Below, piece after piece: positions 134-4,011 of a stretch of DNA of 4,011 nucleotides. Source of the DNA: a virus (lineage: Duplodnaviria > Heunggongvirae > Uroviricota > Caudoviricetes); IMG/VR virus record IMGVR_UViG_2698536379_000010; one strand, 5' to 3'. Position 1 is the first letter of the stretch. The number at the start of each line of letters is the position of its first letter. A program made the translations under genes and the position numbers. The notes under the pieces were generated by a model. The model saw nothing but the letters and a program-made list of their open reading frames with translations. It ran no database searches and had not been told where the DNA came from.

Positions 134-547
134 ATAAAAGGGATTGGCAGTGTACTGGGATTTGATCTCAGCAGCCTTTCCCTGAATGCCAATGGGGGGA
201 TTTATCAGTCTGCTGATTTGAGTCGTTACAGTGGCACGGTGGTTAACCGTCCGACGTTTTTTGCTTTTGCAAAAGGCGCGGGTGTGATGGGGGAAGCGGG
301 ACCTGAAGCCATTCTGCCATTGCGTCGTGGTGCTGACGGTAAGCTGGGGGTTGTGGCGGATATTGGGGGTTCAGGTATGGCGATGTTTTCCCCGCAGTAC
401 AACATCGAGATCAATAACGATGGCACGAACGGGCAGATAGGTCCGGCTGCCCTGAAGGCGGTTTATGACCTCGGGAAAAAAGCGGCAGCGGACTTTATGC
501 AACAGCAGGCCCGTGATGGTGGTCGGTTAAGTGGAGCATATCGGTAA
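134..547 (+). pseudogene. H: Tail tape measure protein (lambda gpH-like), 3'-terminal fragment (137 codons) of a gene interrupted by the IS insertion
   Basis: Frame 2 is open from the IS junction to TAA at 545..547. The C-terminus ...NIEINNDGTNGQIGPAALKAVYDLGKKAAADFMQQQARDGGRLSGAYR resembles the lambda gpH C-terminus as I recall it (...INNDGTNGQIGPAALKAVYD...RDGG...). Its stop overlaps the M start (TAATG). The upstream part of the track ORF (41..133) is antisense IS sequence, not H. Confidence 0.8.
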
Positions 548-876
548 TGGAGACGTTTCACTGGAAAGTGCGCCCGGATATGAATGTGGTATCAGAGCCG
601 AAAGTGGTGACAGTGAAGCTGGGCGATGGTTATGAACAGCGTCGTGCGGCGGGACTGAATAACCAGTTGTCGACTTACAGCGTGACGATACGTGTTCGTA
701 AATGTGAACACCCATCTTTAAAAGCCTTTCTGGAACGGCACGGTGGCGTCCGTGCATTTCAGTGGACGCCACCTTATGACTGGAAACCGATCAGGGTGGT
801 TTGTCGTAAATGGTCGGCAAGCGTGGGGGCGCTGTGGGTAACCATAACGGCAGATTTTGAACAGGTCGTGGCATAG
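547..876 (+). CDS. M: Tail tip assembly protein M (lambda gpM homolog), 109 aa
   Basis: ATG at 547 overlaps the H stop (TAATG), with GGAG about 10 nt upstream. Length is identical to lambda gpM (109 aa) and it sits between H and L. Motifs GDGY, TYSV, WTPPY and the C-terminal FEQVV match my recollection of gpM. Confidence 0.9.
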   Translation: METFHWKVRPDMNVVSEPKVVTVKLGDGYEQRRAAGLNNQLSTYSVTIRVRKCEHPSLKAFLERHGGVRAFQWTPPYDWKPIRVVCRKWSASVGALWVTITADFEQVVA

Positions 877-880
877 GAGG
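875..880 (+). promoter_or_regulatory. Shine-Dalgarno sequence (AGGAGG) for gene L
   Basis: AGGAGG lies 5 nt upstream of the ATG at 886 and overlaps the M stop codon TAG (874..876). Confidence 0.6.
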
Positions 881-885
881 CTCTG

Positions 886-1584
886 ATGCAGGATATTCCA
901 CAGGAAACACATCATGAGACGACACGCCTCACTCAGTCAGCCCAGGCGGTGCTCTGGGAAATCGATCTGACAGAGGTCGGTGGTGAACGTTATTTTTTCT
1001 GTAATGAGCAGAACGAAAAAGGTGAGCCGGTTACCTGGCAGGGGCGGCAGTATCAGGCATACCCCATTCAGGGGACGGGATTTGAACTGAACGGCAAGGG
1101 CAGTGCTGCCCGTCCGACACTGACGGTTTCTAACCTGCACGGCATGGTCACGGGGATGGCGGAAGACCTGCAGAGTCTGGTCGGCGGAACGGTGGTCCGG
1201 CGTAAGGTTTACGCCCGTTTTCTGGATGCGGTGAACTTCGTCAACGGAAACAGCGACGCCGATCCGGAGCAGGAGGTGATCAGCCGCTGGCGCATCGAGC
1301 AGTGCAGCGAACTGAGTGCGGTGAGTGCCTCCTTTGTACTGTCCACGCCAACGGAAACGGATGGCGCTGTTTTTCCGGGACGTATCATGCTGGCCAACAC
1401 CTGCACCTGGACCTATCGCGGTGATGAGTGCGGTTATCACGGTCCGGCAGTCGCGGATGAATATGACCAGCCGACGTCCGATATCACGAAGGATAAATGC
1501 AGCAAATGCCTGAGTGGCTGTAAGTTTCGCAATAACCTCGGCAACTTTGGCGGCTTCCTTTCCATTAACAAACTTTCACAGTGA
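886..1584 (+). CDS. L: Tail tip protein L (lambda gpL homolog), 232 aa, with a Cys-rich C-terminal region
   Basis: ATG at 886 after a strong ribosome-binding site. Length of 232 aa equals lambda gpL, with conserved position between M and K. Five clustered cysteines lie in the C-terminal ~60 residues (ANTC, DEC, DKC, SKC, SGC). The stop TGA (1582..1584) overlaps the K start. Confidence 0.92.
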   Translation: MQDIPQETHHETTRLTQSAQAVLWEIDLTEVGGERYFFCNEQNEKGEPVTWQGRQYQAYPIQGTGFELNGKGSAARPTLTVSNLHGMVTGMAEDLQSLVGGTVVRRKVYARFLDAVNFVNGNSDADPEQEVISRWRIEQCSELSAVSASFVLSTPTETDGAVFPGRIMLANTCTWTYRGDECGYHGPAVADEYDQPTSDITKDKCSKCLSGCKFRNNLGNFGGFLSINKLSQ

Positions 1585-2333
1585 ATCCCATGACAGAGAC
1601 AGAATCAGCGATTCTGGCGCACGCCCGGCGATGTGCGCCAGCGGAGTCGTGCGGCTTCGTGGTGAGAACGCCGGAAGGGGAAAGATATTTTCCCTGCGTG
1701 AATATCTCCGGTGAGCCGGAGGCGTATTTCCGGATGTCGCCGGAGTACTGGCTGCGGGCAGAGATGCAGGGTGAGATTGTGGCGCTGGTCCACAGCCACC
1801 CCGGTGGTCTGCCCTGGCTGAGTGAGGCCGACCGGCGGCTGCAGGTGCAGAGTGATTTGCCGTGGTGGCTGGTCTGCCGGGGAGTGATTCATAAGTTCCG
1901 CTGTGTGCCGCATCTTACCGGGCGGCGCTTTGAGCACGGGGTGACGGACTGTTACACGCTGTTCCGGGATGCTTACCATCTGGCGGGGATTGAGATGCCG
2001 GATTTTCATCGCGAGGATGACTGGTGGCGTAACGGTCAGAATCTCTATCTGGATAATCTGGAGGCCACAGGGCTGTATCAGGTGCCGTTGTCAGCGGCGC
2101 AGCCGGGCGATGTACTGCTGTGCTGTTTTGGTTCATCGGTGCCGAATCATGCCGCCATTTACTGTGGTGACGGCGAGCTGCTGCACCATATTCCTGAACA
2201 ACTGAGCAAACGAGAGAGGTATACCGACAAATGGCAGCGACGCACACACTCCCTCTGGCGTCACCGGGCATGGCACGCATCTGCCTTTACGGGGATTTAC
2301 AACGATTTGGCCGCCGCATCGACCTTCGTGTAA
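1581..2333 (+). CDS. K: Tail tip assembly protein K (lambda gpK homolog) with N-terminal JAB/MPN metalloprotease domain and C-terminal NlpC/P60-like domain; start codon uncertain (GTG 1581, ATG 1590 or internal ATG 1734)
   Basis: The frame is open from GTG 1581 (overlapping the L stop as GTGA) to TAA 2331..2333, and the first ATG is at 1590. The JAB/MPN motif H-S-H-P-x6-S-x2-D (HSHPGGLPWLSEAD, nt 1791..1832) and an upstream E-x-C-G (AESCGFVV, Glu at 1644..1646) are present. Cys (1950..1952) and two downstream His residues are arranged as in NlpC/P60 enzymes. Confidence 0.9.
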   Translation: MNPMTETESAILAHARRCAPAESCGFVVRTPEGERYFPCVNISGEPEAYFRMSPEYWLRAEMQGEIVALVHSHPGGLPWLSEADRRLQVQSDLPWWLVCRGVIHKFRCVPHLTGRRFEHGVTDCYTLFRDAYHLAGIEMPDFHREDDWWRNGQNLYLDNLEATGLYQVPLSAAQPGDVLLCCFGSSVPNHAAIYCGDGELLHHIPEQLSKRERYTDKWQRRTHSLWRHRAWHASAFTGIYNDLAAASTFV

Positions 2334-2878
2334 AAACGGGGGCCGAAGCCATCCGGGCGCTGGCCATGCAGATCCCGGCGTTTCGTCAGAAGCTGAGCGA
2401 CGGCTGGTATCAGGTACGGATTGCCGGGCGTGATACAGGTGAAAATGAATTATCATCCCGTCTTAATGAGCCGCTGGCAAATGGTGCAGTGATCCACATC
2501 GTGCCGCGCCTGGCGGGTGCCAAAAGTGGCGGTGTGTTTCAGGCAGTGCTGGGTGCGGCGCTGATTGCGGTGGCATGGTGGAACCCTGTGGGCTGGCTGG
2601 GGGCCGCGGCTGTATCGGGTATGTATGCAGCAGGGGCCAGTATGATCCTGGGTGGTGTGGCGCAGATGCTGGCACCGAAAGCCAGAACTCCCCGTACACA
2701 GACAACGGATAACGGTAAGCAGAACACCTATTTCTCCTCACTGGATAATATGGTTGCCCAGGGCAATGTTCTGCCTGTTCTGTACGGTGAAATGCGCGTG
2801 GGGTCACGTGTTGTCTCTCAGGAGATCAGCACGGCAGACGAGGGGGACGGTGGTCAGGTTGTGGTGATTGGTCGTTGA
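2231..2878 (+). CDS. I: Tail tip assembly protein I (lambda gpI homolog), 215 aa; N-terminal ubiquitin-like/beta-grasp region followed by a Gly/Ala-rich hydrophobic segment
   Basis: ATG at 2231 is the first start codon after an in-frame TGA at 2195..2197, with GAGAGAGG 11 nt upstream. It overlaps the K 3' end by 103 nt in a different frame, which is the arrangement I recall for lambda K/I. The stop is TGA at 2876..2878. Confidence 0.88.
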   Translation: MAATHTLPLASPGMARICLYGDLQRFGRRIDLRVKTGAEAIRALAMQIPAFRQKLSDGWYQVRIAGRDTGENELSSRLNEPLANGAVIHIVPRLAGAKSGGVFQAVLGAALIAVAWWNPVGWLGAAAVSGMYAAGASMILGGVAQMLAPKARTPRTQTTDNGKQNTYFSSLDNMVAQGNVLPVLYGEMRVGSRVVSQEISTADEGDGGQVVVIGR

Positions 2879-2896
2879 TGAAAAACGTTTTATGTG

Positions 2897-2926
2897 AAAC
2901 CGCCTCAGGGCGGTTTTGTCGTTTCT
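2897..2926 (+). terminator. Stem-loop with T-rich tail in the I-J intergenic spacer (possible weak intrinsic terminator or RNA stability element)
   Basis: AAACCGCC (2897..2904), loop TCAG, then GGCGGTTT (2909..2916) form a perfect 8-bp stem, followed by TGTCGTTTCT. It sits in the 60-nt gap between the I stop and the J start. Confidence 0.4.
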
Positions 2927-2938
2927 GGAGCGTGAGGA

Positions 2939-4011
2939 ATGGGTAAAGGCAGCAGTAAGGGGCATACCCCGCGCGAAGCGAAGGACAACCTGAAATCATC
3001 CCAGATGCTGAGCGTGATAGACGCCATCAGCGAAGGACCGATTGAAGGTCCGGTGGATGGATTAAAAAGCGTGCTGCTGAACAGTACGCCAGTGCTGGAC
3101 AGTGAAGGTAATACCAACATCTCCGGTGTCACGGTGGTGTTCCGGGCCGGTGAGCAGGAGCAGACACCGCCGGAGGGATTTGAATCCTCCGGTTCTGAGA
3201 CGGTGCTGGGTACGGAAGTGAAATACGACACGCCGATCACCCGCACCATCACGTCGGCAAACATCGATCGTCTGCGCTTTACTTTCGGTGTGCAGGCACT
3301 GCGGGAAACCACCTCAAAGGGGGACCGGGATCCGTCGGAAGTCCGCCTGCTGGTTCAGATACAGCGTAATGGTGGCTGGGTGACGGAAAAAGACATCACC
3401 ATTAAGGGCAAAACCACGTCGCAGTATCTGGCCTCGGTGGTGGTGGATAACCTGCCGCCGCGCCCGTTTAATATCCGGATGCGCAGGATGACGCCGGACA
3501 GCACCACAGACCAGCTGCAGAACAAAACGCTCTGGTCGTCATACACCGAAATCATCGATGTGAAACAGTGCTACCCGAACACGGCACTGGTTGGCGTGCA
3601 GGTGGACTCGGAGCAGTTTGGCAGTCAGCAGGTGAGCCGTAATTATCATCTTCGCGGGCGCATTCTGCAGGTGCCGTCAAACTATGATCCGGAAAAACGC
3701 ACTTACAGCGGCATCTGGGACGGAACGTTAAAACCGGCATACAGCAACAACATGGCCTGGTGTCTGTGGGATATGCTGACCCACCCGCGCTACGGCATGG
3801 GGAAACGTCTTGGTGCGGCGGATGTGGATAAATGGGCGCTGTATGTCATCGGCCAGTACTGCGACCAGTCAGTACCGGACGGCTTTGGCGGCACGGAGCC
3901 GCGCATCACCTGTAATGCGTACCTGACCACGCAGCGCAAGGCGTGGGATGTGCTCAGTGATTTCTGCTCGGCGATGCGCTGTATGCCGGTATGGAACGGG
4001 CAGACGCTGAC
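2939..4011 (+). CDS. J: Tail tip/central tail fiber protein J (lambda gpJ homolog), N-terminal 357 codons; continues beyond window end
   Basis: ATG at 2939 is preceded by GAGG (2934..2937). Frame 2 has no stop through to the window end, which is why it is absent from the ORF track. The translation MGKGSSKGHTPREAKDNLKSSQMLSVIDAISEGPIEGPVDGLKSVLLNSTPVLD... closely matches the lambda gpJ N-terminus as I recall it. Confidence 0.93.
   Translation, partial: MGKGSSKGHTPREAKDNLKSSQMLSVIDAISEGPIEGPVDGLKSVLLNSTPVLDSEGNTNISGVTVVFRAGEQEQTPPEGFESSGSETVLGTEVKYDTPITRTITSANIDRLRFTFGVQALRETTSKGDRDPSEVRLLVQIQRNGGWVTEKDITIKGKTTSQYLASVVVDNLPPRPFNIRMRRMTPDSTTDQLQNKTLWSSYTEIIDVKQCYPNTALVGVQVDSEQFGSQQVSRNYHLRGRILQVPSNYDPEKRTYSGIWDGTLKPAYSNNMAWCLWDMLTHPRYGMGKRLGAADVDKWALYVIGQYCDQSVPDGFGGTEPRITCNAYLTTQRKAWDVLSDFCSAMRCMPVWNGQTL

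Follow-up and report, generated by a model that had tools for sequence, protein, structure and literature searches.

The start of gene K in a lambda-type tail operon

At which codon does gene K begin, and is the protein of 199 amino acids annotated for phage lambda the whole of its product? The question is raised by a stretch of 4,011 nucleotides (nt) from a virus of the Caudoviricetes (IMG/VR record IMGVR_UViG_2698536379_000010; this whole stretch is called the window below), in which the K reading frame extends upstream of the codon at which lambda K is annotated to start. The analysis described here indicates that K is very probably a coding sequence (CDS) of 744 nt at positions 1590-2333, encoding a 247-residue protein with a JAB/MPN+ domain followed by an NlpC/P60 domain, and that the classical 199-residue K is an annotation artefact. 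The landmarks of the frame are as follows.

1581-1583, plus strand: GTG overlapping the stop codon of gene L, candidate start of a 250-residue product, not conserved (from the sequence; no Shine-Dalgarno pairing, ΔG +2.0)
1590-2333, plus strand: gene K at full length, 247 residues, JAB/MPN+ plus NlpC/P60, most likely the true CDS (RefSeq coordinates, homolog lengths, conserved ATG)
1599-1883, plus strand: JAB/MPN+ (Prok-JAB, PF14464) metalloprotease domain (Pfam, alignment with PDB 2kks, AlphaFold2, Foldseek)
1644-1655, plus strand: E-S-C-G element with the predicted catalytic Glu, E19 of the 247-residue protein (homolog conservation)
1718-1722, plus strand: GGAGG, Shine-Dalgarno-like, 11 nt before the internal ATG and also encoding part of E-P-E-A (ΔG of the anti-Shine-Dalgarno duplex)
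1724, plus strand: G that the lambda reference (J02459/NC_001416) lacks between its positions 14266 and 14267 (alignment)
1734-1736, plus strand: internal ATG (Met49), start of the classical 199-residue annotation (matches lambda 14276)
1791-1832, plus strand: HSHPGGLPWLSEAD, the HxHx7Sx2D zinc-site motif with H68, H70, S78 and D81 (homolog conservation)
1920-2261, plus strand: NlpC/P60 (C40) cysteine peptidase domain (Pfam PF00877, Foldseek)
1950-1952, 2148-2150 and 2184-2186, plus strand: C121, H187 and H199, the putative NlpC/P60 triad (motif position)

An initial annotation, made from the letters of the window alone, had described the K frame as open upstream of the ATG at 1734 as far as a GTG overlapping the L stop, with a further ATG at 1590. 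All of this was borne out: no stop codon interrupts the frame between 1569 and the TAA at 2331-2333, the GTG at 1581-1583 overlaps the TGA at 1582-1584, and ATG codons stand at both 1590 and 1734. The same annotation had taken lambda gpK to be a protein of 199 residues whose start would correspond to ATG 1734. This is indeed how K is given in J02459, in NC_001416 (14276-14875) and in UniProt TIPK_LAMBD, and lambda 14276 corresponds to window position 1734. The two halves of the JAB site that it had placed on either side of the internal Met were also found there, the AESCG element upstream at 1641-1655, with its Glu at 1644-1646, and the motif it had given as HSHPx6Sx2D downstream at 1791-1832, where HSHPGGLPWLSEAD fits HxHx7Sx2D.

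The 48 codons upstream of the internal ATG are conserved and constrained

An exhaustive search of 1.84 billion representatives returned 2,702 homologs of K. Among the close homologs the dominant length was 247 residues, in clusters of thousands of members, and homologs from Salmonella, Citrobacter and Edwardsiella at 69-80% identity were 242-249 residues long and kept the pattern ILAHA..CAPAESCG.VV..G..Y.PC.N.S.EP..F. The segment encoded upstream of 1734, which includes MTETESAILAHAR...AESCGFVVR, was kept in homologs down to 35-50% identity. Conservation was quantified in 103 distant full-length homologs (<62% identity), to which the percentages given here and below refer. Upstream of the internal Met, H11 was retained in 83%, A12 in 80%, P17 in 87%, N38 in 98% and F47 in 94%, and within the AESCG element E19 was retained in 96%, C21 in 90% and G22 in 98%; these last three residues were invariant in two further homolog alignments (A2 and A3). 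Met49 itself was kept in only 13% of the distant homologs and was Ile in 63%, and the internal ATG reads ATT or ATA in the Stx-phage lineage. The alignment with homologs and JAB profiles that had been put forward as a check on the initial annotation thus gave a clear outcome, with conservation running upstream of 1734 and an internal Met that is not conserved.

The domain profile extends over the same segment. Pfam Prok-JAB (PF14464, gathering cut-off 25 bits) matched residues 7-101 of the 250-residue open reading frame (ORF) over profile positions 4-103 of 114 with 51.3 bits; the 199-residue form matched only profile positions 63-103, with 22.9 bits, which is under the cut-off. A solved JAB protein, PDB 2kks, aligned to K residues 7-102, its ARQALPNEACG pairing with ARRCAPAESCG of K. 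In the PHROGs collection a 76-residue family of 'unknown function', phrog_7305, matches K residues 1-76 (window 1590-1817), and there are also JAB-only (phrog_2635) and NlpC/P60-only (phrog_2552) families. Some such families probably derive from split or truncated annotations of K, and some may be genuine two-gene versions.

The pattern of nucleotide change was that of a coding region. In an alignment of eight lambdoid phages the variable columns of 1590-1733 fell 6, 4 and 18 on the first, second and third codon positions (chi-square p=0.002). Against the Stx phages this segment had 11 synonymous and 3 nonsynonymous codon changes, compared with a ratio of about 46:27 in the rest of the gene. 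Judged from these sequence comparisons, the upstream codons are under purifying selection and the 144 nt that they occupy are more constrained than the rest of K.

Predicted structure and active sites of the 247-residue protein

AlphaFold2 modelled the 247-residue K with a mean predicted local distance difference test (pLDDT) score of 79.6. The most confident part was residues 1-40 (91-94), modelled as a helix at 3-15 and strands at 21-27 and 30-36, all of them before Met49; over the N-terminal domain scores were mostly 77-94, with 69-72 for residues 71-90. In a Foldseek search of the PDB the top matches of the N-terminal domain were to P. furiosus JAMM1 (5lda/5ld9; template-modelling score 0.66 on the target, root-mean-square deviation 2.6-2.8 Å), followed by Rpn11, CSN5 and AMSH, so that in the model this domain has the MPN fold. 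The C-terminal domain matched MepS/Spr, LytE and CwlO. The initial annotation had held that a start at 1734 would drop the conserved Glu and the first strands of the fold, and the model agrees, since one helix, two core strands and the predicted catalytic Glu would be gone. The 199-residue form was also modelled and gave a mean pLDDT of 35.6 from an alignment of only 5 near-identical sequences, in which even the intact NlpC/P60 domain collapsed; because it is confounded by alignment depth, this model says nothing about the N-terminus.

With the upstream codons included, the JAMM motif of K is complete at the level of sequence, consisting of the upstream E19 and the downstream HxHx7Sx2D, whose residues were retained in 98% (H68), 96% (H70), 90% (S78) and 97% (D81) of the distant homologs. 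The NlpC/P60 domain matched Pfam PF00877 with 49.1 bits (gathering cut-off 23 bits) over the whole profile, positions 1-105 of 105. D120, C121, N186, H187 and H199 were invariant in the 24 homologs of alignment A3, and C121, H187 and H199 form a putative catalytic triad, assigned by motif position rather than by a structure-based check. In every respect that could be tested K belongs with the JAB/MPN+, NlpC/P60 and lambda gpK families. Whether judged by conservation, by the domain profile, by the predicted fold or by the pattern over codon positions, the protein reaches upstream of the internal Met, and the long form of K put forward by the initial annotation is the correct one.

K shares the fold and the E...HxHx7Sx2D zinc site of the JAMM/MPN+ isopeptidases (P. 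furiosus JAMM1, the HvJAMM1 desampylase, Rpn11, CSN5 and AMSH). It differs from them in that identity is only 22-25%, in being fused to an NlpC/P60 domain, and in its proposed substrate, which is the ubiquitin-like domain of the tail assembly protein gpI. The NCBIfam desampylase model aligned with K residues 3-93 at 27 bits, far under its equivalog cut-off of 130. With the NlpC/P60 (C40) peptidases, such as E. coli MepS/Spr, K has in common the match to the whole Pfam profile, the conserved Cys-His-His and the structural matches. It differs in being a cytoplasmic protein that virions lack (PMC10721106), which makes it unlikely that K hydrolyses the cell wall during infection.

A base missing from the lambda reference accounts for the short annotation

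In the lambda reference the upstream ORF, which begins at ATG 14134, is out of frame with K. On alignment, GGAGGC-TATTTCC of the reference stands opposite GGAGGCGTATTTCC of the window, the extra G being window position 1724. This G is present in five other lambda-derived sequences, namely LC730321 (Lambda_AGU, 48,503 bp), the DE3 prophage from BL21(DE3), KT232076, lambda imm21 and PV340536, and phage 434 also has an extra base at the equivalent position, as A. The 247-residue frame is therefore open in the G-carrying lambda-derived sequences, in the window and in 434.

Exact matches to the reference in the phage collection were confined to J02459, NC_001416, OR474059 (flagged UNVERIFIED) and OR974322. 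About 25 near-identical phage records, with lambda imm434 among those that have the extra base, span 352 nt here and not 351. When a 61-mer of the reference was compared with 3,917 complete E. coli genomes, none of the 6,660 matching places was exact, the best being 98.4%, which amounts to one extra base. There is a second state peculiar to the reference, an extra G in GCGAGGC near lambda position 138, which is lacking in LC730321 and present in both OR974322 and OR474059. Because they share both reference-only states, these two records look reference-derived rather than independent.

The simplest reading of these alignments is that the 1982 sequencing of lambda left out one base where the DNA is rich in G+C. 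The missing G (window 1724) closes the upstream frame in the reference, and for that reason lambda K was called at 199 residues, a point absent from the initial annotation. Without that base the first 48 codons would have been out of frame; annotators would have taken the next ATG, which by chance has GGAGG upstream, and the call would then have been copied to other records and to UniProt. The strong internal site probably explains why 1734 has been chosen repeatedly, both by people and by gene callers. Literature searches turned up no paper that explicitly corrects the start of lambda K or the sequence at 14266. A sequence note supplied with commercial lambda DNA reportedly gives two differences, a G inserted at 14266 and another deleted at 138, and the alignments above agree with both.

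Choice of start codon and alternative readings

Of the product of about 247-250 residues suggested by the initial annotation, the shorter form stood and the longer did not: from comparison of the phages K is most likely the 247-residue product of ATG 1590 and not a 250-residue product of GTG 1581. Lambda, 434, five Stx-type phages and Fels-1 all have an ATG where the window has ATG 1590, and in each it comes 5-11 nt past the L stop. In the window it lies 5 nt past that stop and has no Shine-Dalgarno pairing (ΔG about 0). Since it has no ribosome-binding site and the spacer is only 5 nt, coupling of K translation to that of L is the natural reading and a plausible one, in which ribosomes finishing L would probably re-initiate at the conserved ATG just downstream. 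A scan for promoters and terminators gave nothing near the L-K junction that exceeded the expectation from shuffled sequence.

The GTG could be seen as an alternative to ATG 1590, given that it is in frame at 1581-1583 and overlaps the TGA at 1582-1584, and that four-base stop/start overlaps are a classic translational-coupling arrangement. However, among the phages compared the GTG is specific to the window: lambda, 434 and the five Stx-type phages read GTA and end L with TAA, Fels-1 differs at this point, and the ATG three codons on is kept in all; RefSeq, too, begins K at ATG 1590, and a 250-residue K is thus very unlikely. The internal ATG raises a different alternative, for in the window, lambda and 434 it has GGAGG 11 nt upstream with a ΔG of -9.5 kcal/mol, and other lambda genes are known to have nested in-frame starts (S105/S107, C/Nu3). 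The gene could then give two products, the 247-residue protein from ATG 1590 and a nested 199-residue protein from ATG 1734 made up of the NlpC/P60 domain and a non-functional half of the JAB domain. Against this, the internal Met is replaced by Ile both in the majority of distant homologs given above and in the lineage of the Stx phages, coding for E-P-E-A constrains the GGAGG as well, and a product starting at Met49 would be without helix 1, two core strands and the Glu, with its first ~50 residues probably unfolded. We consider the two-product arrangement unlikely, and give a similarly low weight to the idea that the phages with GGAGG-ATG (the window, lambda and 434) deliberately make the 247-residue enzyme together with a 199-residue isoform that is NlpC/P60-only or regulatory.

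The classical view, by which only the 199-residue protein is made from ATG 1734 and the upstream frame is untranslated, draws on the annotation of J02459, NC_001416, DE3, lambda imm21 and UniProt TIPK_LAMBD and on the same strong Shine-Dalgarno sequence. It has to contend with upstream codons that are under purifying selection, that are conserved to 35% identity including the Glu, and that are needed to pass the Pfam threshold, with an internal ATG that is missing in many homologs, and with a lambda call that rests on a 1-nt gap peculiar to the reference; we regard it as extremely improbable. Equally improbable is a gap that is real in lambda, where the sequence would read GGAGGCGTATT and K would be split into two polypeptides or frameshifted, unlike in the window. 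The gap is common to four GenBank records, and lambda uses programmed frameshifting in G/GT. In contrast, LC730321, DE3, KT232076, lambda imm21 and PV340536 carry the G, imm434 and others have the 352-nt spacing, the gapped version is found at none of the 6,660 places in the 3,917 E. coli genomes, and the two gapped records other than the reference also share the extra G near position 138. As the frame break is confined to reference-derived records, programmed frameshifting of lambda K was rejected. A few observations do weigh against a single 247-residue product from ATG 1590. This ATG has no Shine-Dalgarno sequence and the internal one has a strong one, so that there is a small chance of some internal initiation at 1734; GenBank lambda records OR974322 and OR474059 carry the reference gap; and the prophage of the window has a disrupted gene H, so that K here may be free of selection, though its ORF is intact.

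Annotation of K across records

The long K is correct yet already known, as a 247-residue RefSeq call and as a JAB plus NlpC/P60 architecture published in 2006. RefSeq WP_001419734.1, a 'C40 family peptidase' of 247 residues, has the same coordinates, 1590-2333, in the identical prophage DNA of E. coli strain DEC5E; it shows no difference from the K of the window, and its product name covers the C-terminal domain only. NCBI already has the exact 247-residue sequence on 161 contigs, under AEZ39569.1 and other accessions. The K of the window is 97% identical to the 247-residue K of re-sequenced lambda and falls in the same 90% cluster as lambda K. It has the JAB plus NlpC/P60 architecture in common with lambda gpK (TAPK), from which it differs in the records by its length, the reference and UniProt entries of lambda having 199 residues owing to the missing G. 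The L-K junction also differs, being GTG/TGA in the window and GTA/TAA in lambda.

The same gene is annotated at 199, 211, 247 or 293 residues in GenBank, even on nearly identical DNA, and the 199-residue call has been copied into records in which the frame is open (DE3 and lambda imm21). Other lengths on record are as follows.

211 residues: KT232076
244 residues, equivalent start: Fels-1
247 residues: 434, PV340536, JLK-2012 and Stx2 12E129
293 residues: BP-4795

For the window itself nothing changes. The point is one of curation, in that J02459, NC_001416 and TIPK_LAMBD still carry K short by 48 residues, and work that clones, models or mutates lambda K on the basis of the reference would use a protein without the predicted catalytic Glu and part of the JAB core. 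ORFeome two-hybrid screens built on the reference K would likewise use a half-JAB protein, which could explain why K showed no partners among tail proteins.

Proposed function of K

gpK is needed for assembly of the lambda tail tip, and mass spectrometry found none of it in virions (PMC10721106, PMC12617516). TAPK was described as a JAB plus NlpC/P60 protein by Iyer, Burroughs and Aravind in 2006 (PMC1779556), who proposed that it processes the neighbouring gpI, freeing the N-terminal ubiquitin-like domain at a conserved C-terminal Gly (PMC1779556). In the 247-residue protein the N-terminal domain would be a zinc metalloprotease, with E19, H68, H70, S78 and D81 as its predicted site, and the C-terminal domain a predicted cysteine peptidase with C121, H187 and H199; following the published hypothesis, the JAB domain would remove the ubiquitin-like N-terminal domain of gpI. 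In virion structures gpI becomes visible only at residue 101 or 135 (PMC11101478, PMC10721106). The absence of the gpI N-terminus from these structures is compatible with processing by K and is no proof of it.

Operon context and state of the prophage

The window lies in the tail-tip region of a late operon of the lambda type. It holds the 3' end of H, all of M, L, K and I, and the beginning of J, and the gene order H-M-L-K-I-J is that of phage lambda. The ORFs of M, L, K, I and J each match their own Pfam family and are syntenic as annotated, with K between L and I/J. The genes flanking K are as follows.

547-876, plus strand: gene M (ORF list, Pfam family match)
886-1584, plus strand: gene L, minor tail protein L, 232 residues, TGA stop at 1582-1584 (ORF list; Pfam Phage_tail_L, 330.7 bits; RefSeq annotation of the identical DEC5E prophage)
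2231-2878, plus strand: gene I, tail assembly protein I with a ubiquitin-like N-terminal domain (ORF list; Pfam Lambda_tail_I, residues 14-97; RefSeq annotation)
From 2939: gene J, start only (ORF list, Pfam family match)

Lambda, 434, mEp460 and many E. coli prophages match the window at 96-98% identity, and a prophage in E. coli O55:H7 strain DEC5E matches its positions 134-4011 at 100%. Positions 1-133, with a minus-strand ORF running from 79 to 2, are the end of an IS3-family insertion sequence (IS) element of the IS1203/IS629 type, and the N-terminus of its transposase reads MTKNTRFSPEVRQRAVRMVLESQGEY. This element interrupts the tape-measure gene H, in which respect the prophage of the window differs from lambda. 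Since H is disrupted, the prophage is probably tail-defective, despite the intact M, L, K and I and the intact portion of J within the window.

K and I overlap by 103 nt (2231-2333) in different frames. The start of I is itself uncertain, as the Pfam domain begins only at residue 14 (ATG 2270); some GenBank records place the I start at the K stop, where the equivalent codon in the window is GTA. gpI has 215 residues in the window compared with 223 in lambda, and the difference sits in the Gly/Ala-rich hydrophobic middle of the protein, the N-terminal ubiquitin-like and C-terminal parts being nearly identical. Between I and J, at 2897-2925, there is a strong hairpin, AAACCGCC-UCAG-GGCGGUUU followed by UGUCGUUU, with a ΔG of -20.3 kcal/mol and a z score of -3.5 against shuffled sequences. 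A simple terminator scan passed over this hairpin, and the phage 434 record annotates a terminator at the equivalent site.

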